The notes below the pieces were generated by a model. The model was not told the DNA's origin, searched no databases, and saw nothing but the letters and a program-made list of their open reading frames with translations. Both the position numbers and the translations under genes were made by a program. Of a stretch of DNA of 64,000 bases, positions 5,729 to 40,134 are shown one piece after another (positions within the stretch are counted from its first letter, which is position 1; the number at the start of each line of letters is the position of its first letter). This DNA is from a virus (taxonomy: Duplodnaviria > Heunggongvirae > Uroviricota > Caudoviricetes): the IMG/VR virus record IMGVR_UViG_3300017650_000009, one strand, 5' to 3'.

Positions 5729-6285
5729 GCAAGGACTGGCTCACCGGTAAGGGAAAGGTCGTTTATGATCCATTCCGTGGCGGTATGAAAAACAAAATTG
5801 ATTGGTGGTGCGTCATCGAACTCGATGACAGCATAACTGATTATTACCGTTGGTGGGCCAATAAGTATGTGAATCCACTCGGATATACCGAGGCCGACAA
5901 ATACGACGCTAAGGGGAATTTCACTTGGCATTCACTCCGTGACAAGCGCGAGGATCTCATGCTTCCGAGTTGGGGCGCACATATGAGCATTGTGCGGGGT
6001 GAAAAGCCACGGGAAGACCTTATGCATCTGTGGCGCAAATATCATGGCCAAATTGTTGAATTCAAATATTCGCCCAATGTTCGGTTCAGTGGTGACACTA
6101 GTGGTTCCTCAATGGATCCAGATAAGCAAGGTGTATATTGGTTTATTGATGCTAAGTGTGAACTAGGTACTCATATCCGTGACGAGCTAGAGAAGCCAAG
6201 TCATTGGAATTTCCATATCACCGTTGGTCGAGTTCGTCAAGGACAGGATTTCAAATATATTCCACCAGTGAGGAAACCACTATGA
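5725..6285 (+). CDS. 2H phosphoesterase superfamily protein
   Basis: Two HxS/T motifs: AHMSIV and FHITVG. Confidence 0.75.
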   Translation: MSKDWLTGKGKVVYDPFRGGMKNKIDWWCVIELDDSITDYYRWWANKYVNPLGYTEADKYDAKGNFTWHSLRDKREDLMLPSWGAHMSIVRGEKPREDLMHLWRKYHGQIVEFKYSPNVRFSGDTSGSSMDPDKQGVYWFIDAKCELGTHIRDELEKPSHWNFHITVGRVRQGQDFKYIPPVRKPL

Positions 6286-6677
6286 AAACCAAACGTGGCA
6301 CATTTTATGTTCTTCGCGTTGGTGAAAATTTCTTTGCTGGCATGTCTCCGGTTATGGAAGTTGTATCCAAACAAATCACCGTTCCAATACGGGAGACCAA
6401 GGATAAGAAAAAACTTCCCAAATATTTGTTTGAAAAGATCAATCGTAGCATGTGGTCTTGGGGCGGAGCAAGAGATAGGATTCGTTACACGTATGAGACT
6501 CAAAAGAGTGAACGTATGACTGGCGAATTTACAAATATTTGGACTGATAATCCAAAAGAAGCAAAGCCGTTCAGAGATCATAGCAAAGCATTGACAAAGG
6601 CTAAAGAGCTTGCTAAGGATCTTGGCGTCAATGAAAATATGATCAGGATCGATCTAATAGAAGGAGATAAAAAATGA
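6282..6677 (+). CDS. Hypothetical protein
   Basis: GAGG RBS; ATGA overlaps with both neighbours. Confidence 0.7.
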   Translation: MKTKRGTFYVLRVGENFFAGMSPVMEVVSKQITVPIRETKDKKKLPKYLFEKINRSMWSWGGARDRIRYTYETQKSERMTGEFTNIWTDNPKEAKPFRDHSKALTKAKELAKDLGVNENMIRIDLIEGDKK

Positions 6678-7132
6678 TTCTCGAAAAGCTCCGCGCACGT
6701 ACTTTGGAGTACCGCAAAGCTCGTCATCCTATGGCAGCATTCCTGGTTTCCGTCACGGCCAAGGCTGCTGATTTTGCGAAAAAGGAAAACCCGCAGGATC
6801 CAGTCATTACCGAGGATCATGCTGTTCGCGCAATTCAGAGTTTCGTGAAGGGTGCAGAAGACAATATCAAACTGTTGGCTCACGATACGGCAAATCGCCT
6901 TTATGTGCTGGCACAAGAGGAACGCAAGCTGTTGAAGGAATTCCTTCCTGCTGAAGCCACTGATGAAGAAGTTCGTGCGTTCGCAGTGGCATTTGTTGAG
7001 GAACGCGGTGATTGGATGGGTGCAAAGATGGCACTTATGGGTGGTATCATGGCGGAACTCAAGCATAAGTTTGGTGCGTCTCTCAATAGCGCGGCTGCAT
7101 CCAAAATTGTGAAGGAAGTGTTGAGTGAGTAA
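6674..7132 (+). CDS. GatB/YqeY domain protein
   Basis: 'E..LLKEFLP....EEV', 'MGGIMAELK', 'ASKIVKEVL' YqeY pattern. Confidence 0.8.
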   Translation: MILEKLRARTLEYRKARHPMAAFLVSVTAKAADFAKKENPQDPVITEDHAVRAIQSFVKGAEDNIKLLAHDTANRLYVLAQEERKLLKEFLPAEATDEEVRAFAVAFVEERGDWMGAKMALMGGIMAELKHKFGASLNSAAASKIVKEVLSE

Positions 7133-7544
7133 ACCCACTGATTTCATTTTGTGGTTTAACGGAACGCCGGTGACTCTAAGTCTTCTAGAGCACTGGCGTC
7201 CTGGTATCACAAGCTGCGGTATAGTCGAGGCTCTTGAGTGTTTGCCTGAGTATTTCGGGCAAGCCACTAGTCGCGTCAGCATTGCGGATATAAAGCTGGA
7301 TTTCAAATTTACACCGAAAGCTGGTGAAACTCCTGAATCCCTACGGAAAGAACGACAGGTACTTGAGGACCAATATCTTATTGCGGTTCAAAAATATCTG
7401 GAACACGACCGCACAATGTCGAATGAGTCTTCATATGACGATAAAGTCCTTTGGGCTAATCTGAACTGTGATGTAAAAGATGTTGAAGAAAAACTAATTG
7501 AGATCAATAAAAAGATTTCAATGGTTTCAAGGCTTTCCGAATAA
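7125..7544 (+). CDS. Hypothetical protein, C-terminal coiled coil
   Basis: GTG start overlapping the previous gene; fills operon. Confidence 0.6.
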   Translation: MSKPTDFILWFNGTPVTLSLLEHWRPGITSCGIVEALECLPEYFGQATSRVSIADIKLDFKFTPKAGETPESLRKERQVLEDQYLIAVQKYLEHDRTMSNESSYDDKVLWANLNCDVKDVEEKLIEINKKISMVSRLSE

Positions 7545-7579
7545 AATTCAGTTTATTTCAAAAAAGTTAGAAAAACAGG

Positions 7580-7607
7580 TTGACGCCTTCCTATCCTATG
7601 TTATGTT
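7580..7607 (+). promoter_or_regulatory. Early promoter
   Basis: TTGACG-N16-TATGTT with TG extension and A-rich upstream region. Confidence 0.7.
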
Positions 7608-7675
7608 GAGTACATGAAGCGCACAACAAACAACGCGCTAACGGAAACAGAAACAAAGATCGAAAGGAATACAAA

Positions 7676-8005
7676 ATGGCTAAGGTTCTCAATTTCAACG
7701 TTGCAGCTCTCGCACTTCTCGGTTCGAACGTTCAGGTTCGTGTGCGCGTCAAGAACGATGCACTTCAGGTTCGCCCATCGGCACGTGTGCTGGCAACGAA
7801 TCTTCCGGAAGGTGAAGTTATGCGCAACGTGAGCTTCAAGCGCGAAGGTGACAAGGTTCGCGGCGCTGTGGTCAACCTGAAGGATTTCGGCGGCGAAGCA
7901 GGACAGGCATACGAACTGTCCAAGGGCAAGTACGGCTGGCTCAACCTCACCCCGGTTGCAGAAGTTGCAAAGGGTGCTGCATACGGTCGCGTTGCGGTCA
8001 AGTAA
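7676..8005 (+). CDS. Small basic beta-rich protein, paralogue of 8463-8831
   Basis: AAGGA RBS; C-ending codon bias; shares L.FN..A, RP[ST].R and YGW..LT motifs with 8463-8831. Confidence 0.8.
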   Translation: MAKVLNFNVAALALLGSNVQVRVRVKNDALQVRPSARVLATNLPEGEVMRNVSFKREGDKVRGAVVNLKDFGGEAGQAYELSKGKYGWLNLTPVAEVAKGAAYGRVAVK

Positions 8006-8025
8006 TACGCCGATAAGGTCGGCAA

Positions 8026-8048
8026 GGGGCAGTGGTTAATGCTGCCCC
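8026..8048 (+). terminator. GC-rich hairpin after gene
   Basis: GGGGCAG-tggttaatg-CTGCCCC; no clear U tract. Confidence 0.5.
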
Positions 8049-8151
8049 CACAGTTAGCTTCCCTTAAACAACTAGAGGAGTATGTGTCCGTTAACAGCTA
8101 ATTTCATTTGTGATTGGTTTTTAGATAGAGACTCAAATTCAACTCTAACGG

Positions 8152-8182
8152 AAAAAGCTTGGACCTCCAGCCAAGCTTTTTT
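8152..8182. terminator. Bidirectional terminator-like hairpin
   Basis: AAAAAGCTTGG-acctccag-CCAAGCTTTTT. Confidence 0.6.
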
Positions 8183-8363
8183 CTACCTGTGAGTTCCAGC
8201 AAAAATGTTACAGTTTCGTAATATTTGTTGTTAGCTGCTTGGAATCACGTTGACAAAAGCAAAAAACATATAAATCAAACCGTTTTTACGGTTGGCAAGT
8301 TATTGATTTTATTGATGTCAATAACAAAGTTCGTTCAAAACCACTTTAATCACAGTCTTTACG

Positions 8364-8391
8364 TTGACATTATAGCATAAGGAACTACATT
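8364..8391 (+). promoter_or_regulatory. Early promoter
   Basis: TTGACA-N16-TACATT. Confidence 0.6.
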
Positions 8392-8462
8392 AAGAGCATG
8401 AACAGCACAAAACGGTGCAGTTCTTAAACAGCGCAACAGGCGCATATTTAAGGAGATCGAAA

Positions 8463-8831
8463 ATGGAAAACGCAACTGCAACTGAAACGAAGACCATCGG
8501 CCTGTCCTTCAACGGCAATGCTGTATCGGCTTTCTTGAACAAGATGCCATCGAGCAACCGCTTCCGTGTTGCAAACCACGACGGCGTAATGTTTCTCCGT
8601 CCGACGGATCGCAAGAAGGGTCCTCATGTGTTTGCGGACTTTATGCAGACACCCCAGGCCGGCAGCACACTTCGTGTTCAGCTCACCGACGCACAACTTG
8701 ACAAGCTCGGCATCAACATTGAGCAGGGCCAGAAGTTCGGTGTTCAGCAGGATCGATACGGCTGGTTCTTCCTCACTTCGGACGATTCCGGTATCGAAGG
8801 CGCAAAGGCAACGGTGGTCAAGGGTCAGTAA
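8463..8831 (+). CDS. Small protein, paralogue of 7676-8005
   Basis: AAGGAGATCGAAAATG RBS; shared motifs with 7676-8005. Confidence 0.8.
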   Translation: MENATATETKTIGLSFNGNAVSAFLNKMPSSNRFRVANHDGVMFLRPTDRKKGPHVFADFMQTPQAGSTLRVQLTDAQLDKLGINIEQGQKFGVQQDRYGWFFLTSDDSGIEGAKATVVKGQ

Positions 8832-8863
8832 AAACTCTTAACTCGGAATGCCAGCACACAACA

Positions 8864-8890
8864 AAAAAGCGGGACATTGTCCCGCTTTTT
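8864..8890. terminator. Bidirectional intrinsic terminator between convergent genes
   Basis: AAAAAGCGGGAC-att-GTCCCGCTTTTT. Confidence 0.85.
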
Positions 8891-8896
8891 ATTTCT

Positions 8897-11800
8897 TTAA
8901 AGTTTTCTAATATATGCGGCGCCTGCACCTGGAGTAATTTGGTTTTCACCATTTTTATCCCACTGATGCCCAGGGACACCAATAATAAGATTACCACGTG
9001 GATCAATATCAACGGCATAACCAAACATATCATCAACATCGCTTGCATTGGTCATTGGTGTGCCATCCTCATTTAGGAAACCAATAATATCAGTACCCGC
9101 ATCCCACTGACCCGCGACACGCTTATATGCGGTGATGATACCCTTATTTGAATCATCTGTTGGCTGACCAACTACTAGGATATTATTGTTAAAGCCCAAT
9201 AGTTTCGCACCATCAAGTTGTTCAACAGCAAGATCAAAAGTCTTATCCAGAGTTAGATTTGCACCATCGAACACGAATACATGTACTAGGTCGCGACCGG
9301 ATTCAGCAATTGCAACATTGTTTGTGACATTATCAATCGAAACATATGCGCCGAAACGTGCAAAGTTATTACGTTCTGGAGCAACAAATTTTCCAAGTAA
9401 TGGGAAACCGTTTGTACGAGCATAAATCCAAACCGCACCCGAACCTTCCATACTATTGAGTCCCTGTTCATCATATGCATGTTCAGGAGAACCAACAACC
9501 ACATAAGCACGGCTTGAGCTAATTGATGCACCAAACATATCGCCTTCACCGCGGCCATTTGTCGCGCCCAAGGCACTCAAATAGCTGTCAAATGTAAAGT
9601 TACCAGCATCACGCTTGAACAATGCAACTGCACCAAAGTGTGACAAACTATCTTCGGCGGCAGTACCATTACGCATTGGTATACCAGCAACAGCACGGTT
9701 TGCATCAGCAATTGCTACACTCTCAACGCTTGCTAGTTCGTTACCTTCAAGACCTGGGATATCCTTGGTAATTGTTGAACCACCCAACGAAGCCCATTCG
9801 CCCGGTGCAACACGCTGGAACATTTCAACTCTGTTATCCGTTTCATCGGACTTACTTGTGATGATGTAATTGTCACGACCACCAAGTGTTTGACCAAGTC
9901 CTATAACATTTGTAGTAAGCTTAACTTCTGGATTCCAATTTACACCATTATATCCGTAAACGAACAATGCGCCTTCAGTTGAAAGTGGAGCACCAGTAGT
10001 TGTGAATTTGTGGTAAGGACTTGCCGAAACGATGAAGTCCTTACCCGCAAATACTGACTTACCAAACATATCACCGGCTTGGATACCATTGCTGTAGCCG
10101 ATTTCGTTGAGTTCATACTTAGCAATTCCAAGAGAACCATCAGAACCATACAAATAGCCCAAAGCGTAACCAGCTGCCGGTAGATCAATTTGATTTCCAA
10201 ATCCAGTGTTGCCATCCTTGAATAGTTCGAATGCCATTGTTGTGCTTGGAATGACCAAACGTGACCCAGTTGTGCCAGTAAACTTACGTAGAATTTCACC
10301 AGTCTGTGACATCTCAATAAGCTTGTTCTCAGTTTCAACGCCCACGTATAGCTTTCCGTCCATCACGCTAAGGGAAGAACCCTGCAAGGTCCAACCATCA
10401 ACAAACGAAGATGCATACTTTGCAACATAAGGATATTTGCTACCAGTTAGTGCCGTGTTAGTGAATTTGAAAACGGCTCCAATATCAGTATGTGTAGTTG
10501 TCACACCATTTTCTTCAATTACGTCCTGACCTGGGGCACCAACAAAAATGTTGTTTCCGCTGATAGCAACCGATGTACCAAACTTGTCGTTCTCATTACG
10601 TGACCACATTGAACCATTGTATGTGAACTGAGTCGTCGGTAAGTTTGTTTCACCAGAAACGATCTGAATACCACCAATATTTTCTTCCTTAAACTGCGGT
10701 GAAGCCATGTTTAGGGAATACATTGGAGTACCCAAATAATAATTGGAACCAATTGCCGCTACACCCGTAGTACGCTGTTGTGATGTCGTGAAGCTTTGGG
10801 TTGTTTCAACATTGATAAGTTCTTCTGTTGGTTTATAAGACAAAGTCGAATAACGTTGTGAACCAAACCAGTTGTTTACCACTAGATTTGTTAGATCTAC
10901 ATTCATAGTGGAAATCATACGTCCACTAAGGGTGATAAATTTAGTTTCAGTATCACCACGGATGAAATCAAAATTATAGCCAAAGTATGCATTTGCTGTA
11001 CTAATTTTGTCTGTAATTTTTGACTGTAATTCCCAACTTCCATTGATCTTCTTGTAATATTGGATAGAACCAGAATTTTGAGGAAGAGTATCACCAGTTA
11101 TAGTTTGACTCGTTCCCGGCGCACCTATAAACAAACGGTTATCGTCAAAAATACGAGTCTTATATCCGAATCGTTCATTGGCAACACGCAAGTTTATCTT
11201 ACTTGGTGATGAATACAAACTATATCCGTTTTGGGCTCTATCATACGCTAGTTCAAAATTGTATGTCATACCGCCTGGCATACCATCCTTACGTGAATCA
11301 CCAGCAGTATTATTGCCGCCACCACCACCGCCGGCTGCGATAGCAATGACGTCACCGTTGAACGTAATATACGATGCACCACCGCCATAACCAGCATTTT
11401 GCACTGTAGCAGGAGTTCTAGATCTAGCTCCTGCACCACTCAATGCATCATAACGCAATTGTTCACGACTAGTATCGGCGTCAACAGAACGACCTCCTGA
11501 GCCACCAAGACCAATACGAACAAGCAAAGTATCGGTTTCGGAAACATTTAGGGATCCTCGAATAAAGCCACCCGCACCACCCAAAGCAGATCTTGGAGAA
11601 GTAGGAGCAGTAGTGAAACCAGCAGCACCACCACCTGCACCCCAAAGTTGAATATCAGCAACGGTTGCACCATTAGGAATGTTTACTGGTATTTCATCAC
11701 CAGTAGTACCAGCAACAGTTATAATTTCCCCAGTATTGAATGTTATAATTCCGTAACCATGCTTGCCGTTACGATTTGCAATATCCGAACTATATGTCCC

Positions 11801-14800
11801 ACCTGCACCAGTTGTATGATCAGCACTTGGCAGAACTGAGGTATTACCTGGACTCACTAATGCTTCCCATGATTCTGGCAATTTATTTGTACCACCAAAT
11901 GCGCCGTATGAATCCGTACGAGTTCCACCAGCAAATCCTCCAAGGGCACCACCGCCGCCGCCACCGGCAATGACTGAATCAGAAAATACGGTTTCGGCAT
12001 CACTACCCGCCATTATGCCTCGGTTGGTTCTCCAAACCCCATCAATATTTTTCAGTACCCCAATTGCTCCACTGTTGGCAAGAAGTGGATAGCCGTAAGA
12101 CGAGGCTAATGACATAACAATGTTTTCACCTGAAGGTTTAATAACCGCTTGGGTCAAGTTATTTTCCATAGCGTTCGAAGATGTCAACTTCCAAGTTGCA
12201 TTTTCTGCAGGTTCATAAACAAACGAAGCTATGCCAGGAGTCGAAACTACTAATTTCTCATCTGCCCAAGACATACTTGCGCCAAAAGAATTAGTAGAAC
12301 CCAAAGTTGGACTCATAATAAAGGAATGGTAATCATATTTTGATGTATGCGGATTCCATTCATAAACATAAATTCGACCCCAATTAGTATATCGTGTACC
12401 AGCAATTGATAATGACATTGTATTTGATGAACTAGACCAATACCAAGGGAATGCACCATCGAATGACGCAGCAATGGCCAATTTGGAACCATCCGGTGAT
12501 AGCACCATCGAACGCGCATAATCTAGTGTAAGATTATTTGAACTTAATGCTGTGGACAAAACGTGACCAGGTTCTAGAACATTTGCACCATTTTTAGTTT
12601 GTGATGTAATCGGGTTCGCATTAAAAGTCCACGACGTTGCCGATGTTGGACTAATCGTAAATGCGGCTCCATACATACGAGCCATAACATCTGGTGTTTC
12701 CGGATATGTTGGATTGGTGTTAGCCATAACAACTGTATTTGTTTTATTATCAAACAAAACGTTTTGTGTATTTGTAGAAGCAAATGTCATTGAATAACCA
12801 GCAACAGGAGCAATTGTTGTTGGCTGGAATGTATTTGAACTATCCAGCGTAAACATCGTCGAACCTGTATTGGTTGATCCTGCAAATAATACTCCATCAC
12901 CCATGCCTACGTTCAAGCCATTACTAGTCGTAGTTGTAGTTTCAAATGTAATTTTCTGATGAGCAGTAAAACTACCATCATCCAAAACATAGGTGTATAT
13001 ACCACCACGAGTTGGGTTAGTTACGGTGCCCATATAGTTGTACTTGTAATTCGGAACACCCACAGCAACACAACCCTTAAACACACTTACTGATGTGCCA
13101 AACTGGTCATCCTGATTTCGATTGTTAACAAAACCATCAATTTGATAAACCTGTCGAGTTTTTGCAGTATTATTTGTTACGGTTTCAAAATAACCAGAAG
13201 CTGGTCCTGATTGAGTTGCCCCTGGCGATCCAATGTAGAATAGGTTTCTAGAATCATCATACGCCATACCACTACCAAACAAAGCGTTTGATGTTGTATT
13301 GGTTACTATTACCGTATTTGCGAATGTAGCAGAAGGTCCAGTTCCAGAAGAAGTCAAAGTAAATGCCGCACCTGAATTATTGGATACTTTCTGAGAAATC
13401 ATAAATCCACTGTCAGCAAATCGTTCAATACGACTACCATAATATAGATTATTAGAAGGATTAGTAATACTAACTTGTTTTTTGTTCAAACGCCATGCGT
13501 GTTTAATATCGTCCCAATAATAGATGTATGCTGAACCATAATTAGTTCCAGTACTAGTAACCAATGGCGTTCCAGCATATGAATTACCAGTAGCACTAAC
13601 AATAAGGAATTTTTTATCATTACTAAAACGTACCACTTCACCGAAGAAATCGTTTCTAGAACGCATCAATACTTCATTTTCATATGTTGTATTATAGTTT
13701 AGAGTTCCATAATCGTATAAACCAGCAGACATAAATGGTACAACATATGTAGAAACCGTGGTTGCCCATGCGGCTGTTTCACTTGTACGGGTACGCTCGT
13801 TGAATGCACCAAAACGATATGGTATGTTACTCGTCGTGTAAGTTCCACCAAACGCAGGAGCACCCATAATGATTTTAGTAGGCGAAATCATTACGGCAGA
13901 ACGAGTAGTGAACGAAGGTGCAGAATTTAGTTCATTCTGATATTTCCATTTTGAGCCATCATAGTTAAAAATTCTGGAATACCCGGCCATACTCGTTGTA
14001 TTTGTACCATAACTTGTAAGAATTGCAAATTCACCATTAAGATCTACGGTAGTTCCATATAATGTTCCTGTTGCAATATTTGTTTCACTCATCAATTTGG
14101 ATTTAAATGCCCACGAATTGCCGTCCTTAACAAACATAAATCCAGCACCAGTTTGATTAGCCGTTGCGCCAGAATCAAGCAAATTGTATCTAGGTGCGCC
14201 AACAAGTAGACGAGTGCCATCAGTGACCATTGATGCGCCAAACTCAGCAACCGTTCGTGAACTTACTGTCTGTTTTGTTTCGAATGTTGTTGGATTAATG
14301 GTATATTGTTGTGATGCAACATTCAATTCAAGCAAATTCAACTTACCAAAACTAATATTATTGTTCGAAGTTTGATCAGGGCTACCAACTACAATGTTAT
14401 CGGAATCTTCGAAGAAATTCAAAGATGAATTCAAATATGTTGTTGGTGCAAATGTTGTTGGACCTCTGTATTCAGTAAATCCAATATTATCTACTTGTTG
14501 AGTAAGTGTTAGTGACGTCCCATTAGTATAGACGAAAACTGAACTATTGGCATATGTTCCTGCAGATTGTGGTGTAGTTGATGTCCCAATAGTAACTTTA
14601 TTTCCTCTGGTATCAATTCGTGATCCAAAGAGCCAATTCTGAGAACTCGTAGGATACAAAGACTGAATATTCTTATATGCGACTTCAGGCGCACTATAAC
14701 GGAATACCTCAGTAGATCCCGTATAAGACGATGTATTGGTATTAGAATACAACGGTTTTGTATTTTTCGGACGACCAACAATGATATCAGTACCTGAGAT

Positions 14801-17800
14801 ACCAACAGCAAAGCCCATCATTTCACCAGTTTCATAATTCTGTCCATTGTCGCCAGGATATGACACTACATAAGCATTAGAATATGGACGGTTATTTGTG
14901 TCGTCTGGAATCAATTTGACGACTGCACCAGTGGCCGATTCACCCCAATTTGCACTTGTTGATGACAACGTTATGTTCGAAGACCAAAGTTCGTTATTAT
15001 ACAATACGAATTTACCATTAGTATTCACATATGGCCAACCATAAACACGGTTAGGAGAGCCGGCAGTTCCGGACCATGAAGCGCCAGTTGTAAGATCTAC
15101 GTTATTTCCGGAAAGACTAGTAGCCGGCATATACCAACTAAAAATTCCGTTTGATTTGGAATCAATGCACATTTTATTCCTAGTAGCCGGGTCAATACGT
15201 CCCAGAACATTACCATAATCCAAACCAAACTCACCTTTATAATTGTATGCTCCTGTAGCAGAATTAGTAACATTCGCTTGGAAATGTGCCAAATTCATAT
15301 TCAAAGTCACAGATCGAATTAGTCCGTATCCAGTTGAACCTTGCAAACTTAGTAAAATAGTATCATCAGGATTTGTCGTTATACCGATGCTTTGCAAAGC
15401 ATTATTGCCTGATCCCAAAGCAGGATTCACATAGCGATCAATCAATTTGAAATTATTTTGCACATCGTAAACCATAACAGAACCAGATGAATATCGATCG
15501 GTTCGAGTGGTGTCGATATCATAAAAAATACCCAAAGCACTAATATAAACTTTGTTATTACGAACAGCAACACTATCGCCGTAATTTATAGTACGCCATC
15601 CATTGCCCGACGCCAAACGAGGCAAGAAACTACCATTTGCAATAATCGGCAACGCATTGGTTGCCCAATTTGTTCCATCGAAAGTTTTGATATCGACTTT
15701 GCCTCGTTCGGACAATGACATATTATAAATTGGAGTTTCCAAGCTCGAACGGTTCGTACCTGCTTTGATTGGTACAAATCCGCTATATTTTGGTGCACCA
15801 GATAAGATTGTATTATCATCCAAAACCAACGTTGCTGAACCTCGACCAAATTCAGACTCAACCATTTGTTTTGTATCACCATTTGGATCCGGTGAGAAAG
15901 AAGCTTTATATGCAGCAATATTACGAACACGGAATTCACTCAATCGATAAGTTATACCGGCTCCATTACTAACAGTATTATTTGCACGAATAATATGAGT
16001 TCCCATATCAAACTCATATCCAGTGATATCATAAGTATTAGTGTGGATTCCATGAACATATGTTCTTAATTCATTACCATCTCTAACAATGGCTAGATGT
16101 TTCCATTCAGTAGTTTCGAAACGACCAATATCAAATTGCACCACTTTTGTATCAGTGACATCATTTAGTAATTCAAAATAAAGCATAAATGAACCGATAA
16201 TTGGTTCAGCACGATATTTGATATTCCAACTATTGGTATTCGCGGAGCCAGTTGTATTTTGAAACAATATACCATCAAGGCGATCAGTTGTAATCGAGCC
16301 CATAGCTTTTGAATTCAAAGCTACATATACTTCAAAAGTGAAATTATTAAGATTTGTAAAGGTCGTACCAGTAATTGTAGGACAACCAGTACCAGTATTA
16401 GATAGCGTGGTATTAAAATGTAGACTACGTCCATAACCAACCGTAGGTGTAGCAGGTGTAGAAAATGCCGTAATACCAACAGCATTAAATAATTGTGCTC
16501 CATTAGGTTGATTTACATTTGTACCATCAGCAGCAATACTCGTACCTCTTGCATACATCACAATGTCAGAATCGGAATTATCTAAAACTGCGCTAGTTTG
16601 TGTCCATACGCCTTCACTTAGTTTGAACACGTAACTAGCTGAGTTTCCTGACGCTTCAATTGAGATAGTATTACCTTTAATTGATATAGCATTACCAAAA
16701 CGAGAGTTTGCAGTTCTAAGACCAACTAGCTTTTGTACTTGGACCGGCGTGGAACTAACATCATATACCCATACCGAACCAGCATTAGTTACGAGATTAT
16801 CGCCATTTTCATCGAACCCATTTACACTGGAAACTAGCAATGTATCTGCATCAATAGCCAGTTTATGCCCAAAAAAGTCACTATTAGTGGATGCATTAGT
16901 ACCCGTAGGTATGATCTGTGCTTCTTGAACCCAGGAAGTCCCATCGAAAGTAAAACTATATACGGATCCTGGATACGAGGATGAACCATTAACACTAGTT
17001 GAACCAACAAAAAGTTTTGTTCCGTTAAACGCCAAACTGGTTCCGAAACTAGAGTTGGCTGCACGAGTAGTAGGAACTATTTTTTGGAAACGGGTCCATG
17101 TGTTCGCAACTAAACGATAAACCCAAACAGCACCAGCATTCGTTAATGAATTGGCTCCATTAGCGTCATGAGCATGACCTGGCCCACCCATGAATGCCCA
17201 TTCACCTGCAATAGCTACTGATGTACCAAAGTAGTTGTTGGCAGCTCGAACATTTGTGCCAGAGGTTGGAGCAAATTTAGAAACTTGTTTCCAATCAACA
17301 ATAGTAGTTTCTTCAACTGTTTCGACAAAATAATCATATTCTACGATTATCACACCATCGGTGCCTTTAGTAGTATCGGTTCCACCAATCCCATATGTAT
17401 CAAAAAATGAAGGAAGCTTGCGTTTATCACCATCAAAACAGGTTACGTTTTTTACATAGCTAGGATTTGGACCGAACCCCGGTGTGACTTCAGCCATACT
17501 TGATCCACCAGACCCTGAGCCACCACATGCAAATGCTGTAAATGCACCTGTTGATCCTGCTCTGTAACCGTAAGCATTCGTACCAGCTGCACCGCCGCGA
17601 TAACCACCGCCACCTGCACCAGAATTGAATGGGTTGTCGACAAGTGTTCCGCTATTATAGGGAACAGCATTATCGCCACTCATATAAATCGGATCCATGA
17701 TGGTTTTACCACGGAGATTTGCACTATTTGCATTGACATAGTTTGTAGTCAAGTTACTATTTACGACGCCATAGATAAAATAATTCGGCGAGGACCATGC

Positions 17801-30689: not shown

Positions 30690-31245
30690 AATCAAAGCTC
30701 GCCATGCACGGATGCTTCTGAAAGAGATCGAAAATCTCAAGCTAATTCAAAAGCTTAACTACGGGAATACATATGTTCCCGTCGCTGTTTTACGTGAGCA
30801 TTTGACATCAAAAATAGGTCCGGCAAAGGGTTCTTGGAAACATGATCAACAGTTTCGTTTCCTACTTGATAGTCTTCTTGATACAAACGCATTCATGTTC
30901 CAGGAGCCTTGGACCACGGACGTATCCAAGCTTGTTGATTTGACAAAAATGTTCGACGATCTGGGCGTCGGAGTGGATGATCGTGAACTACTCATCCACA
31001 CATCAGCTTTAGGAAACTGGATATCACAAGCAAAACTCGAAGATGATGAAGTGAATGATTTTGTTGTTGAGCTAGTTGAGAACAACTTGAAGATGCATAG
31101 CTTCGGTTATACTCGTACAACGATCATCGAAAACTCACCCACAGTGCCATATCGTATGAGACATGACGTCCCAAAAGTTGAACCAAAAATAATGGGCACA
31201 GTGACTTCAGATGGAGTGGTTGAAATGCTTTGGAGGTCAAAATGA
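30673..31245 (+). CDS. Hypothetical protein, possibly a divergent winged helix
   Basis: 'IENLKLIQKLNYG..VPVAVLREHL'; overlaps both neighbours. Confidence 0.7.
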   Translation: MDINRKIKARHARMLLKEIENLKLIQKLNYGNTYVPVAVLREHLTSKIGPAKGSWKHDQQFRFLLDSLLDTNAFMFQEPWTTDVSKLVDLTKMFDDLGVGVDDRELLIHTSALGNWISQAKLEDDEVNDFVVELVENNLKMHSFGYTRTTIIENSPTVPYRMRHDVPKVEPKIMGTVTSDGVVEMLWRSK

Positions 31246-31751
31246 GTCAGTTTTCGATCATGACATGGAAAGCTGCCCAAGCAATCGGATACGGCAGGAA
31301 TCTTGCGCTTGATGTAGAAGCAAAACTTCCAACAGGCACACAAAAGCGTCTAGCCGAAGAACGTCTTGAGATTCTTAACGAACTCTTAGCCCAGGATATG
31401 CTTGTCAAGCTGACTAAGGGTGAGTTTAGCTTTGAAATTGATCCAGAAGAATCACTTACGGTTCGTGAGATATCCGCACGAACGGGAATGGATCGCACTG
31501 AAGTATCAACGCATTTGGAACATTTGGAGCCATTAGGTTTGGTTTCATATTATGGCCCATCGAAAATTGATACCATATTCTGGAGGAAAATTTCAGACAA
31601 TCCCAAGAAGCGCGGACAGATCAAGCCATTTGCCCATATGAGTCATTATGTGCGTGATTTCCTCTACGGCAAACCAAAGGAAGAGATCGTCGACGTCCTA
31701 CGGGAAGTGCTTGAAACACAAAGCCTTTTGGTAAGAAAGTCATATTTCTAA
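31242..31751 (+). CDS. Winged helix-turn-helix DNA-binding protein
   Basis: LTVREISARTGMDRTEVSTHLEHLEPLGLV (MarR/TrmB-like wHTH); GGAGG RBS. Confidence 0.8.
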   Translation: MSQFSIMTWKAAQAIGYGRNLALDVEAKLPTGTQKRLAEERLEILNELLAQDMLVKLTKGEFSFEIDPEESLTVREISARTGMDRTEVSTHLEHLEPLGLVSYYGPSKIDTIFWRKISDNPKKRGQIKPFAHMSHYVRDFLYGKPKEEIVDVLREVLETQSLLVRKSYF

Positions 31752-31752
31752 T

Positions 31753-32240
31753 AATGCTAAATATTGCAAATTAGGACAGATACAGTTATAGTCCTGAGTA
31801 ATAAGCATTTACAAGAATACGGTGATACCGGGACCACCTGACCGGCACTATGAGAGGCTTTGCTTGTCTCGTTTGGAACGAAATCATTTTGGGCCCCACG
31901 CAAAGGGACTTCCCAAAAATGTGGACCGCCAAGGCTTATTGCCGAAAGAGTCGCCCTTACTGATGGTAAGGAGGAAAAGATTGATGCGATCCCTGAAGAG
32001 ACCAGGGAACATCAAGCCACGAGGAAGTCGAACCTTCTGTTGCTTCCCGTGTAGTGTGGTATTGTCCACGACCGTGTTTCATAGAAATATGAGGATTTCG
32101 GCAAGTTGCAGGTAAATGAACACCGCCTGTGCCAATTGCTTTCAGAAGGTGCCTGAGAAACTCGTAGAATGTTTTCCATTCATAATCCCCCTGATACATA
32201 GCAGTTGTTTGTTTATTCAACTGTGTGTATCGGGGGGAAT
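31753..32240 (+). ncRNA. Candidate large structured non-coding RNA (~480 nt), family not recognised
   Basis: At least 9 helices, G:U pairs consistent with the + strand, a multibranch domain closed by 31939-31947/32096-32104, a 21-bp terminal stem, and TAAATA at 31758. Confidence 0.7.
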
Positions 32241-32366
32241 AACATGCCCTCAAATCTGTAGAATATCATTACTCGCTTCGCTTTTCCTTCCAATCTTTTC
32301 CATAAAACCAGACAAATCACCCACACAATCTACTCCAAATAACCCACAGAGATCTGACATATAACC

Positions 32367-32393
32367 TTGACATGGATATCTACCTGCTATATG
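32367..32393 (+). promoter_or_regulatory. Early promoter
   Basis: CTTGACA...ccTGcTATATG; spacer is short. Confidence 0.55.
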
Positions 32394-32417
32394 GATTAAT
32401 ATCTAATGGAGATACCT

Positions 32418-36180: not shown

Positions 36181-39100
36181 ATGCAAGACCGTCAAAGACA
36201 TCATATCATTGTTGACTCAAAAGAAAATGTGCCTACTGTCCTCGAGCAGTTGAAGCAAAGCTCACTCACGGATCTAAAGACGTGGGTTGCATTTCCACTT
36301 CTAATTAGTGCGAGTCTCACTAAGGCTCAAGTTGATTGGTTGAAACGTCATCCTATGATCAGCTTCGTCGAACCCAATAGTGCGGTTTACCTACATGCGG
36401 ATCCCAAGCAATATGAGATAAAGCCCCAACCTGGTGCAGACTTGCAAGATATCCGTGCGAGTCTTTTTGAACAATTCGATATCGAATTATGGCAATTCGA
36501 TGATTTGCCAGACGTGTTGTTTACAACACTGGATGAGGATTCCTATACTAGACTTTCGATGCAAATTCAACAGGGTAACTTTCCTGATATTCTGAGTTTG
36601 CGTGAATCAATTAATCCAGTACGTGAGTTCACAAGAGTTCTAAATTTGGACCGCTACAATTGGGGTATCGAACGAATTTCACATCGCAATACTCGTTTGT
36701 TCGAACGTGTGAGCTTTACTCAGACTGGTGAAAACGTAAACGTATTTGTGTTGGATAACGGCGTACAAAGCAATCATGACGAATTGAGAGGCCGTGTTAG
36801 CCCTCAACGTTATGATGCGTTCCGTGATATGTCTGATCCTCTTTATGGTGAACCAAGCACTAGTACGAGTATGGATGGTTCGCAAATCACATTCGATGAT
36901 CATGGTACACATGTTGCTAGTATCATTGCAGGTTCAACTGTTGGTGTAGCTCCAAGTGCAACCATTTACTCAGTTCGTGTTTTCTCAAATGATTCTGAAG
37001 AACCTACAACTATCAACGATATTTTGCTTGCGGTAGAGTGGACTATAACAATGCATACCACTATTGGTGGTGCATCCATCGTAAACATGAGTTTCGGCAT
37101 TCAGGATGCAGTTATTGGAAATATGTATGTAAGTGATCTGATCACACAGGCGCTAATCAATGTTGGGATTATTACAGTTGTCAGTGCGGGTAACGATGCG
37201 ACAGATGCGTTCTTCACAAAACCAGCCGGTGCAGGTGCAAAACGTGAAGTTCGTCAAGAAGGACAGAAATATTTCCTGGACACAATTATAGATCCAGCAA
37301 TCAAACCAATCACTGTTGGTGCATCTGTTAGCCCTCGTAGCACGGCACGTAATACAGATGGTGTTTGGTCTAAATCGAATTGGGGGGATGTCGTTGATAT
37401 TTTTGCACCTGGTGTGAATATTTTTGCTGCGAGTCTACAACAGGTTGGAGATTCCATTGATTTGAATCGTACAAGTGCATATGCGGTTAAATCAGGAACA
37501 TCAATGGCAGCCCCGCATGTTGCGGGCATCTGTGCTTTGCATTTGTCTAAGGATCCCACGCTTACTCATCAACAAATGCGTGAGCTAATTATAGAACAAG
37601 CAACAAAGAATCCATTCAATATTGCTGAAACACGACATACTCGTGTTGATCCTGTTCGTTATCGTCAAGTTGGATCTCAAGTTGTCCCATATGTGTTTGA
37701 GAATACAACAATGTATTCTCCGAATCGTTTGGCTTTTGCTTGGTTCACTTTAAGCCGATTCAATTGGACTGATCAATCTTATACACTTGAAGTAGATGAG
37801 CATCAGCGTTTGGAAGCCAAAATTAGTGCATCTAGTACAAACTATTACGGCGACAACGAGCTTGTTGATTATGAGATTACTCAACTTGATGTTCCGGTGG
37901 AATATCCTTTGGGCTTCCCTTTGAACTTCACAAGCACTGAATATGTGAGTACAGATGGAAACATTGTTGAAAATATTAATGTTCTGAACTTGCGCATTGA
38001 TGCACCATCAGTCCCAGAGACTCGTATTGGATCGTTTGAGATACAAGCGTATGATGGACGAGTACGTGGATTCCGACGTCTAACAATTCAAACAAATAAT
38101 GTTCCTGCTCCACCAGTTTGGCAAAGTCCGGCAGCGGGTGAACTATTTGCGACCCCCAAACATAAAGGTGATGTATTTGCACAATCAACGTTGGAATTCG
38201 TTGCCACACAAGAAGACAATTTACCGATTACCTATACAATCATTCCGTTGAATGGTTCACTACCGTTGGGATTGAATTTACGCCAAGATCAAGTCGGTAA
38301 TAAATCCTATTTGAGTGGCACAATTGTTTCACTCCCATATAGCCAGGAACCAATTAAATATGAATTTCTAATCCGAGCTACTGCTGGAAATGGATTGATT
38401 GCAGAACGACTATTCACACTAACATGTGAGTATCAAAACTCAATCCATTATTTCAATCCGGATTGGCTTGTTGGGTTCTATGAGATTGAACCTAGCATTT
38501 TGATGATGCCTCCGGCTCGTATTGGTAATACGTATTACCAAGCCATCGATGTTGTAAACGAGGACAATGATGTTCTAACCTATGCAATTGATTTTGTTCC
38601 TGGAATCGTTGAGGGTCCCGGTGTATTCAATGGTCGTTTACCAACGGGTCTGGGAATTTTTGCAGATGGTAGCATTCGAGGAATCGTTGATCCTACTGTC
38701 GTTCTCGGTCTCTATTACATTCGACTCACAGTAACAGATGTTGAGGGAAATGAGATTGCTCAGAATTTCCGCATTACTGTTGAAATCGGTGATGATGATG
38801 TGCTCCAGGAATCTGATCAGATTATTTGGGTTACACCTCCCGGATCAATCGGAAACATTTACGAAACATTCCCGTCGCATGTCCTGGTTGAGGCAATCAA
38901 CCCAGAAGGGACACCTGTTGTTTACTCGGTAAGTCCGAATGGCGGACCTTTGCCCGATGGTCTAACCGTCCAGAGTACAACCGGTTATATAATGGGGTTT
39001 GCTCCTTTTGTTAGTGCTGATACAACCTACACTTTTGCAATCCGTGCAACTGTTGGTGCACGATATGTGGATCGCACTTTTAGTATTACGATTTTGAATC

Positions 39101-40134
39101 AATATGAATCCACAAACATTCGCAATGTAAAGGGACGAATTACAGGTTATGAACGTCAAGAGTTCAAGGACTGGCTTGTCGATTCACCAATTTTGACTCG
39201 TGAGGTTTTATTCCGACCTGGTGATCCAAACTTCGGTGCAGTTGATCAACTTGAACTATATGTGGTATCCGGACTAAACACACAGGCGTTTGATGAGTCT
39301 GGAAATGCAGCAACTATGGTAGAGATTCTAAAGGACTACCACAAGCGCATGTATTTGACATATGGTCCACTCACATATGCACCGGTTTATGATCCATCCG
39401 GCTCATATATTTGTGATGTAATTTATTTCAGTCTAGTGGATCCACAAGCCAAAGCTGGTGGATTTAATGCTGATGGTTCTGAACAGGTCCTAACTTTGCC
39501 ACAGAGTCATCCATATGATCCGGATCTTTGGGACGCACAAACTGGTGAATCGCGTTTCTATCCGAATAGTCTGGGTAATGCGCGTGAAGATTTGATATCA
39601 ACAGTTGATGGTCGTTTGGGCTTTGGACTTGCTGGTGAAGAAGGCATGCCAATGTGGATGAGAACTACGAGTAATCCACGTAATACGAATTTGAAACCAC
39701 GCGGATATACTCCTGCTATCATCCTCGCTTATGTGAAACCAGGTAAGGGATTGCAAGTTTCTAACCAACTTGCGTTACGTGGACTCACAAAGCAATTCCA
39801 AGGCCGTGAACTTATATTGGATCGCTATTACGTGAGTAATAGCTTGATCGCGGCATTGACAACGTTTGATGACAATTTGACTACGTTTGATGTTCCTGGT
39901 ATTCCATTCACATGTGTAAAGCCGGTGTTCTGTGCTTGGGATCCAAATACCGAAACACAAACATGTGATCCACAAGCCGGACAAATTACAGCTTGTGACG
40001 TTCCTGAGAGCACAACAGATGCTCCAACCCAGTTTGATGTTGGCACAACCGAACTTGGTAAATATTATAAATTCAACGACGACGTTCGTATTCTCCGTGA
40101 TCGAGGATATCCAGAACCAGAAGATAATAGGTAA
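36181..40134 (+). CDS. Subtilisin (S8) protease fused to Ig-like repeats; probable baseplate/virion protein
   Basis: Triad motifs VLDNGV, HGTHVA, SGTSMAAPHVAG; N-terminal I9-like prodomain; 'LPxGL....G.I.G' He_PIG-like repeats. Confidence 0.85.
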   Translation: MQDRQRHHIIVDSKENVPTVLEQLKQSSLTDLKTWVAFPLLISASLTKAQVDWLKRHPMISFVEPNSAVYLHADPKQYEIKPQPGADLQDIRASLFEQFDIELWQFDDLPDVLFTTLDEDSYTRLSMQIQQGNFPDILSLRESINPVREFTRVLNLDRYNWGIERISHRNTRLFERVSFTQTGENVNVFVLDNGVQSNHDELRGRVSPQRYDAFRDMSDPLYGEPSTSTSMDGSQITFDDHGTHVASIIAGSTVGVAPSATIYSVRVFSNDSEEPTTINDILLAVEWTITMHTTIGGASIVNMSFGIQDAVIGNMYVSDLITQALINVGIITVVSAGNDATDAFFTKPAGAGAKREVRQEGQKYFLDTIIDPAIKPITVGASVSPRSTARNTDGVWSKSNWGDVVDIFAPGVNIFAASLQQVGDSIDLNRTSAYAVKSGTSMAAPHVAGICALHLSKDPTLTHQQMRELIIEQATKNPFNIAETRHTRVDPVRYRQVGSQVVPYVFENTTMYSPNRLAFAWFTLSRFNWTDQSYTLEVDEHQRLEAKISASSTNYYGDNELVDYEITQLDVPVEYPLGFPLNFTSTEYVSTDGNIVENINVLNLRIDAPSVPETRIGSFEIQAYDGRVRGFRRLTIQTNNVPAPPVWQSPAAGELFATPKHKGDVFAQSTLEFVATQEDNLPITYTIIPLNGSLPLGLNLRQDQVGNKSYLSGTIVSLPYSQEPIKYEFLIRATAGNGLIAERLFTLTCEYQNSIHYFNPDWLVGFYEIEPSILMMPPARIGNTYYQAIDVVNEDNDVLTYAIDFVPGIVEGPGVFNGRLPTGLGIFADGSIRGIVDPTVVLGLYYIRLTVTDVEGNEIAQNFRITVEIGDDDVLQESDQIIWVTPPGSIGNIYETFPSHVLVEAINPEGTPVVYSVSPNGGPLPDGLTVQSTTGYIMGFAPFVSADTTYTFAIRATVGARYVDRTFSITILNQYESTNIRNVKGRITGYERQEFKDWLVDSPILTREVLFRPGDPNFGAVDQLELYVVSGLNTQAFDESGNAATMVEILKDYHKRMYLTYGPLTYAPVYDPSGSYICDVIYFSLVDPQAKAGGFNADGSEQVLTLPQSHPYDPDLWDAQTGESRFYPNSLGNAREDLISTVDGRLGFGLAGEEGMPMWMRTTSNPRNTNLKPRGYTPAIILAYVKPGKGLQVSNQLALRGLTKQFQGRELILDRYYVSNSLIAALTTFDDNLTTFDVPGIPFTCVKPVFCAWDPNTETQTCDPQAGQITACDVPESTTDAPTQFDVGTTELGKYYKFNDDVRILRDRGYPEPEDNR

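Follow-up and report, generated by a model that had tools for sequence, protein, structure and literature searches.

A large structured candidate RNA carried in several copies by two lineages of jumbo phages

Known large RNAs and the setting of the element

Large structured RNA classes are rare, and several of them have proved to be ribozymes or RNA-only particles. In ColE1 RNA II and at the R-loop origins of T4, a folded transcript of about 500 nt has its own promoter and a G run, with several origins per genome. The element described here occupies positions 31753 to 32240 of the window, by which we mean the whole 64,000-nt stretch of phage DNA that was analysed; it differs from these systems in that its G run is paired in a hairpin and no antisense RNA I is present, and origin activity is hypothetical here. 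GOLLD and ROOL (PMC12286853) are like the element large, ornate, phage-encoded, and ORF-free, contain several pseudoknots or kissing loops, and are of unknown function; covariation first pointed to their kissing loops, and these were then shown to pair between molecules. At about 440 nt, the element is shorter than these RNAs (659 nt and often >800 nt in that paper), and it also differs from them in occurring as two or three dispersed paralogs per lytic genome, in lying (in the window) away from tRNAs, and in matching no Rfam family even at E <= 10. GOLLD and ROOL are often encoded close to tRNA islands. Circularly permuted group II ribozymes (PMC8637638) share with the element large size, the lack of an ORF, pseudoknot staples, and an open function, but they are about 900 nt long, carry D5 and D6 at their 5' end, and have GUGYG/AY sites, and none of these features was seen in the element.

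A search of the open literature found no description of the RNA type shared by the window, Atu_ph07, and Phosso, or of the RaK2-type RNA discussed below; its scope did not extend to journals behind subscription or to catalogues of predicted viral RNAs published as supplements. No passage on ncRNA was found in the available portions of the Atu_ph07 and AP-J-162 papers, the latter of which counts one unnamed miscellaneous RNA that was not found in its one supplement, and the accessible text of two 2026 preprints has no passage on "jumbo." The over ten thousand candidate viral RNAs of PMC10690425, judged from the part of that paper available, could include fragments of the element.

The window is a portion of an Atu_ph07-like jumbo phage of about 435 kb; the protein encoded just upstream of the element is recorded from a contig 434,884 bases long. 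Among named phages of soil bacteria, it is closest to Sinorhizobium phage Phosso and Agrobacterium phage Atu_ph07 (69% and 52% identity in the clamp loader, respectively). The element lies in a gene-free gap bordered upstream by the end of a winged-HTH gene (31230 to 31751, + strand; ArsR/MarR-like, Pfam HTH_5, E 1.7e-7), which neighbours the A-type copy, and downstream by an ORF at 32406, and ARAGORN called no tRNA or tmRNA gene in the 64-kb window. At 8897 to 29998 and 36181 to 40134, the window encodes a pair of giant repeat proteins (3232 aa and 3778 aa) together with a subtilase of 1317 aa that bears Ig-like domains; among named phages, only Phosso and Atu_ph07 have the subtilase at full length.

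Rfam 15 at the gathering threshold (including GOLLD, ROOL, OLE, raiA, RNase P, SRP, 6S, and introns) gave no hit in the 64-kb window. At E <= 10, the eight sub-threshold hits in the window were all unrelated, and at E <= 2 over eight homologous loci there were five hits, none to group I, group II, RNase P, or self-cleaving families. ARAGORN found no tRNA or tmRNA gene at the copies in Phosso or Atu_ph07. These searches bear out two statements of a preliminary description made from the window sequence, namely, that no familiar family was recognised in the element and that it carries no tRNA, tmRNA, RNase P, or group I/II intron signature. A group II D5 triad hairpin with D6, canonical or permuted, gave no Rfam hit and was not seen by eye in the eight copies, and reverse transcriptase (PF00078) was found in neither of the two phage genomes (control positive in 4 of 14), a search that could miss divergent enzymes. 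A group I intron was rejected, the element being intergenic in all copies viewed and having no Rfam hit; a P7-P9-like stretch considered as a group I core lacks, by eye, a covarying P3 partner, and closer inspection did not uphold apparent likenesses to tmRNA, RNase P, hammerhead RNAs, and the two intron groups. The known catalytic and templating classes were removed from consideration because there is no reverse transcriptase, intron signature, or tRNA-like domain.

Copies in related phages

Eight copies of the element were identified on five genomes or contigs: the window copy, two in Phosso (A and B), three in Atu_ph07 (A, B, and C), and those on two metagenome contigs (RCUQ01000203.1 and L059). 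One of the eight is cut at its 5' end, leaving seven that retain it. By blastn, a single phage record was matched, Phosso (74% over 540 nt), whose copy B lies at 385 kb. Two of the Atu_ph07 copies were seen by profile search, and Atu_ph07 C was found by a covariance model (R1) at 62.7 bits, though absent from its training set. Over 46 records, R1 gave significant matches only in Phosso and Atu_ph07; the best other match (record G018, 17.5 bits) lacks the motifs and was rejected. No further copies were found by the covariance models R2 (38 records) and R3 (28 records), by a joint profile in Atu_ph07 or Phosso, or in a complete 462-kb relative (G001; 57% clamp-loader identity), and supposed extra copies at 183 kb in Atu_ph07 and at 145 and 231 kb in Phosso look like coding DNA. 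A pattern scan of metagenomes returned 119 loci from 36 of 64 parts, two of them true copies (99 of the 119 were also checked by model). Pattern scans of IMG/VR returned 0, 0, and 14 loci, the single true one being Atu_ph07 itself, and a search of IMG/VR with the neighbouring proteins gave no loci. Among bacterial and archaeal GTDB genomes, the core pattern of the Atu_ph07/Phosso branch gave 15 loci, none of them true, and plasmids gave no match; no bacterial copy of this branch was found.

Within each genome, every copy is on one strand, and the spacing is uneven (gaps of 114, 107, and 269 kb in Atu_ph07 and of 314 and 155 kb in Phosso). Gene order around the A-type copy is the same in the window, Phosso, and RCUQ01000203.1; its position is kept in these three genomes, and in a fourth it lies upstream of the same protease gene. 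The genes around the element otherwise differ from copy to copy, as do the genes downstream: the A copies precede long same-strand gene runs, and the next genes downstream of Phosso B are annotated on the opposite strand. Phosso B lies 2 kb from a lone tRNA gene, the main tRNA clusters called by ARAGORN being elsewhere. In Phosso (6806 to 7435 of the locus) and RCUQ01000203.1, an RNA ligase gene is found two genes upstream of copy A; an ORF without assignment occupies that place in the window, and no RNA ligase is annotated next to the other copies. Elsewhere in Phosso, at about 419,750 to 419,950, there is a structured gap with its own predicted promoter, in which ARAGORN and Rfam call no tmRNA; part of it reads like the start of a tmRNA tag frame, and the gap may encode a truncated tmRNA-like RNA.

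The element is 74% identical between the window and Phosso, while the adjacent HTH protein is only 26% identical in amino acids to the product of the Phosso gene in the same position. In a comparison with a close strain (run X5; 40 of its 43 changes listed), 7 listed changes fall within 31753 to 32240, whereas the part of the HTH gene that was viewed, its final 244 nt, has 21. In three runs (X5, X7, and X12), another contig shares just positions 32313 to 32361 of the window and may represent a second copy or locus in the window phage. The GenBank record of Atu_ph07 begins and ends inside copy B, within a stretch identical to copy C, perhaps reflecting an assembly break at the repeat, so that the identity of the B and C 5' ends is provisional.

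Fold, helices, and covariation

The stretch from 31753 to 32240 folds at -166.9 kcal/mol, compared with -131.3 +/- 6.4 kcal/mol for shuffled sequences (z -5.6; 0 of 100 as good), so that one refutation foreseen in the preliminary description, folding no better than shuffles, does not apply, and copies A and C of Atu_ph07 rank first and second for folding among 60 gaps of that genome. The minus strand also folds well (z -5.15), and on a trimmed stretch the minus-strand z was the stronger, so folding energy cannot fix the strand. The + strand was chosen because tetraloops and G-U pairs favour it: GNRA or UUCG tetraloops occur in the predicted fold of seven of the eight copies on the + strand and of none on the minus strand, and G-U pairs are more numerous on the + strand in seven of the eight, in agreement with the original argument from G:U wobbles. 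There is no shared ORF, the longest open frames differing in strand and frame across the eight copies, and a 97-codon frame in the window is broken in Phosso by a 1-nt gap; a further foreseen refutation, a conserved ORF, therefore does not apply either.

All features that follow are on the + strand. An inverted repeat at 31753 to 31809 lies over a predicted sigma70-type promoter (TTGCAA-17-TATAGT, 31764 to 31792; predicted start near 31799), and an inverted repeat likewise overlaps the predicted promoter of Phosso B. The window promoter is kept in Phosso A, and similar sites are found upstream of Phosso A, Phosso B, and Atu_ph07 C; the promoter scan found four sites against 2.1 +/- 1.6 expected, which makes it weak alone. 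On this prediction, the RNA is likely to span about 31799 to 32240, with most of the 31753 to 31809 hairpin likely upstream of the transcript start. The repeat was previously read as a 5' hairpin of the RNA; its pairing is present, but it consists mostly of promoter and is likely a DNA-level element. T4 late boxes start with TA ahead of TAAATA; the TAAATA at 31758, formerly taken for a late box, lacks this leading TA, and the window contains the hexamer 23 times.

The 5' strand of pseudoknot 1 (31803 to 31807) pairs with the loop of P3 (31861 to 31865), a complementarity kept in four sequence types among the seven copies with a 5' end. It is followed by P2 (31821 to 31849), a bulged hairpin with a GA...GA loop that was read off the alignment rather than counted by a tool, and by P3 (31854 to 31870), which supplies the 3' strand of pseudoknot 1 and folds in all seven copies with differing stems. 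A conserved YGGAAYG motif (31874 to 31880) occupies near-invariant columns and is predicted, by eye from the alignment and uncounted, to form short long-range helices with 32098 to 32100 and 32073 to 32075. The P4 stem (31885 to 31921) has invariant CC/GG inner pairs, with two-sided changes in eight of its nine pairs. P5 (31923 to 31952) comprises GGAC/GUC, a variable inner hairpin, and an A-rich joint, with 90.6% of cells paired and little variation. P6 (31954 to 31970) carries a UGAUG loop identical in all eight copies on a stem in which four of six pairs change on both sides, and P7 (31981 to 32015), a hairpin with an internal loop, shows such changes in eight of nine. P8 (32018 to 32051) folds in all eight copies, and its loop (32032 to 32039) is the 5' strand of pseudoknot 2. 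P9, a conserved ACCGU joint, and P10, capped by GNRA or UUCG in most copies, occupy 32056 to 32092; P11 (32108 to 32130) has a 13-nt loop ending in ACCR, of the same length and ending in all eight copies. The 3' strand of pseudoknot 2 (32143 to 32150) precedes a long terminal hairpin (32185 to 32240), which has a C run on its opening side and a G run with an A-rich tail on its closing side, is present in all eight copies, and contains the 21-bp terminal stem noticed at the outset. This hairpin has no U tract, and no intrinsic terminator was found on the + strand. Sequence conservation with Phosso extends to about 32390 through a G-poor, weakly structured flank (32245 to 32390) that is common to Phosso A and B and absent from Atu_ph07 B and C and whose membership in the RNA is unclear. 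Positions 32275 to 32281 of the flank are the reverse complement of a very stable DNA mini-hairpin motif, and similar motifs follow the Phosso and Atu_ph07 copies.

Comparison of the copies supports this architecture. In a plain alignment of seven copies, 87.8% of cells are paired, and two-sided change is seen at 17 of 31 pairs; none of 500 shuffles scored as high, and slid controls gave 35 to 50% paired. In an alignment of all eight copies fitted to the model, and therefore leaning toward it, 20 of 30 pairs show two-sided change. At pseudoknot 2, each P8 loop pairs with its own tail through Watson-Crick runs of 5 to 9 nt whose sequences are unrelated between copies, and cognate pairing is found in all eight. 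Only 4 of 5040 permutations among seven copies score as well as the cognate arrangement, in a test that left out Phosso A because it nearly duplicates the RCUQ01000203.1 copy and that used pairing windows chosen by us; some non-cognate pairs equal cognate scores, for example, the Atu_ph07 A and L059 loops with the Atu_ph07 B tail. Atu_ph07 B and C have identical 5' ends, the identity beginning exactly at the 5' strand of pseudoknot 1, and despite this their pseudoknot 2 strands are wholly different. The covariation draws on only eight related sequences and cannot separate intramolecular from intermolecular pairs. What comparison shows, then, is the helices, the two pseudoknots, the motifs that stay invariant in single-stranded stretches, the number of copies, and the absence of any common ORF.

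Much of the preliminary description has thus held up: the helices it named are present in the window, the 8-bp pairing of 32032 to 32039 with 32143 to 32150 is one of the two pseudoknots, and the homologs in related jumbo phages that it called for do exist and give strong covariation, including at this pairing. Two further details fell away. Positions 32143 to 32150, placed in a small hairpin, form a single-stranded tail across homologs, with no conserved hairpin. A 9-bp helix (31939 to 31947 with 32096 to 32104) proposed to close a multibranch domain is complete in the window only; weaker, irregular duplexes are possible in Phosso A, RCUQ01000203.1, and L059, and there is little in Phosso B or the three Atu_ph07 copies. 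The central reading, a large structured RNA, is supported, and as far as we could find the class lacks a description in print.

A RaK2-type RNA and possible roles of the element

The RaK2-like phage XbC2 carries five same-strand copies of another RNA, the RaK2 type, at 28.9, 94.8, 175.3, 259.4, and 339.1 kb. If the record is closed these lie 58 to 84 kb apart (P about 0.002, calculated by hand, post hoc, on one genome). The RaK2-type RNA shares with the element short motifs, a C-run/G-run end, and several same-strand copies; it differs in showing no evident UGAUG-loop hairpin or long terminal hairpin and in having an extra 5' segment. The profile-profile score between the Atu_ph07/Phosso and RaK2 types is 22.8, compared with 11.5 +/- 1.6 (maximum 16.7) for 60 block shuffles (z about 7) and 8.4 to 11.9 for controls; it is 25.7 without the Atu_ph07 copies and 21.3 without the terminal hairpin. 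In the joint alignment the two RNAs are collinear part by part, which overturned an earlier view that the RaK2 type lacks P4-P6. The same pseudoknot between the P8 loop and the 3' tail is found in XbC2, a script detecting 7-bp cognate runs in four of the five copies; in the fifth, where the script mis-picked the loop, 7 bp pair by eye. R1, R2, R3, and nhmmer gave no significant cross-detection between the branches (R2 is a weak model, scoring Atu_ph07 A at only 9 bits), and of 40 pairwise alignments to the XbC2 copies just three, each involving Atu_ph07 B, reach z >3. On balance, we consider common descent of the two types probable.

Matches to one XbC2 copy occur in 62 phage records and in 2 of 5426 E. 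coli genomes, and in the one of these two genomes that was viewed the RaK2-type RNA lies in an integrase island beside ffs. This island (5844 to 15743 of the locus) holds an IS3-split integrase, the RNA, and DUF4326, DUF488, and dual-OB genes. The first 16 kb of XbC2 also contain a second repeated noncoding family, whose members fold strongly and are unrelated to the element. The related jumbo phage PA5oct makes abundant ncRNAs defined by RNA-seq, among them ncRNA002 and ncRNA004, 450 to 620 nt long (PMC7318152); neither matches the Atu_ph07/Phosso or RaK2 branch significantly, the top match, at E 0.42, being a short hairpin motif common to ncRNA004 (1351 to 1395 of its locus) and the RaK2-type RNA.

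Taken together, these data make it very probable that the element is a functional RNA. Two metatranscriptome runs of one sample gave contigs at a depth of 3.7 to 5.6 over part of the element, with ORFs covered too, and so are uninformative on transcription; the signal in four small-share DNA runs is not RNA-specific. A stand-alone RNA is indicated because copies have their own predicted promoters and changing neighbours and because Phosso B is followed by opposite-strand genes. Our preferred reading, held tentatively and at somewhat less than even confidence, is that of a folded RNA scaffold acting in trans and working like GOLLD and ROOL. The element would be transcribed on its own by host RNA polymerase from the sigma70-like promoter and would end at the terminal hairpin, and GGAAYG, the UGAUG loop, ACCGU, and the ACCR loop would form the working core. 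The compact RNA would act in trans, possibly self-assembling as GOLLD and ROOL do into their RNA-only homo-oligomeric cages, and the duplex of P8 loop and tail, private to each paralog, would either staple one molecule or join like molecules, in which case copies in one genome would assemble separately. Counting against a scaffold are the lack of an intrinsic terminator, the position of the window copy away from tRNAs, and the lack of a copy in G001; in addition, a role in cis would better account for how evenly the XbC2 copies are spaced.

The main rival, which we regard as unlikely, is that the copies are replication origins at which the folded transcript forms an R-loop primer, like ColE1 RNA II or the multiple R-loop origins of T4. 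The predicted promoter, the missing terminator, the invariant 3' G run, and the conserved skewed flank would all suit a primer, as would the one-strand arrangement of copies, their even spacing in XbC2, and the presence of the RaK2-type RNA in an E. coli integrase island, as a satellite origin might be. The G run, however, is locked in a long hairpin, the Atu_ph07 and Phosso copies are unevenly spaced with none added by the joint profile, GC skew across the window tracks nothing but the coding strand, and the downstream flank is absent from Atu_ph07 B and C.

A little less probable still is a decoy or trigger in phage-host conflict that binds a host defence or RNA-binding protein and that bacterial islands captured for the same use. 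Several diverged copies per genome are in keeping with such a role, as is the island in which the RaK2-type relative accompanies DUF488, DUF4326, and dual-OB genes (one island viewed, from 2 of 5426 E. coli genomes), but no repeated protein-binding motif is evident, and the island link concerns only the RaK2-type relative, none of the 15 bacterial and archaeal loci for the Atu_ph07/Phosso branch being true. We think it improbable that the element is a ribozyme, either a new fold or a deeply changed intron derivative with the invariant joints as active site. Its size, two pseudoknots, and short invariant single-stranded motifs would fit, the variable pairing of loop and tail is reminiscent of exon-binding or guide duplexes, and Phosso A has an RNA ligase gene two genes upstream; against this, no group I, group II, RNase P, or self-cleaving family is matched (E <= 10 in the window, E <= 2 over eight homologous loci), no gene is interrupted, PF00078 is found in neither phage, and no RNA ligase is annotated by other copies.

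It is very improbable that the element is an ORF-less mobile element or a structure acting as single-stranded DNA: the dispersed copies, the sharp common 5' border of Atu_ph07 B and C, and the patchy presence recall mobility, but the tetraloops and G-U pairs on one strand are of RNA type, the position of copy A is kept in three genomes with the same protease gene downstream in a fourth, no reverse transcriptase was found, and the annotation around the copies viewed shows no transposase. A role in cis as a leader or antiterminator is scarcely credible, since, although A copies stand ahead of long same-strand gene runs without a terminator, the variable neighbours and the opposite-strand genes after Phosso B argue against it.

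A bolder joint reading, which we find doubtful, is that the element is a branch of an undescribed large-RNA class in two jumbo-phage lineages and does something no known RNA does, either as a primer RNA that marks multiple origins and was stolen by bacterial islands or as a new ribozyme or self-sorting RNA particle with private pairing codes for each paralog. The element may work like the large ornate phage RNAs, yet it belongs to no catalogued family; what is new is the fold, and what is already known is the kind, a large phage RNA of unknown function. Several copies have been kept in two distant jumbo-phage lineages, and the presence of the element in two cultured phages with laboratory hosts, Phosso and Atu_ph07, makes its expression, structure, and knockouts directly testable.
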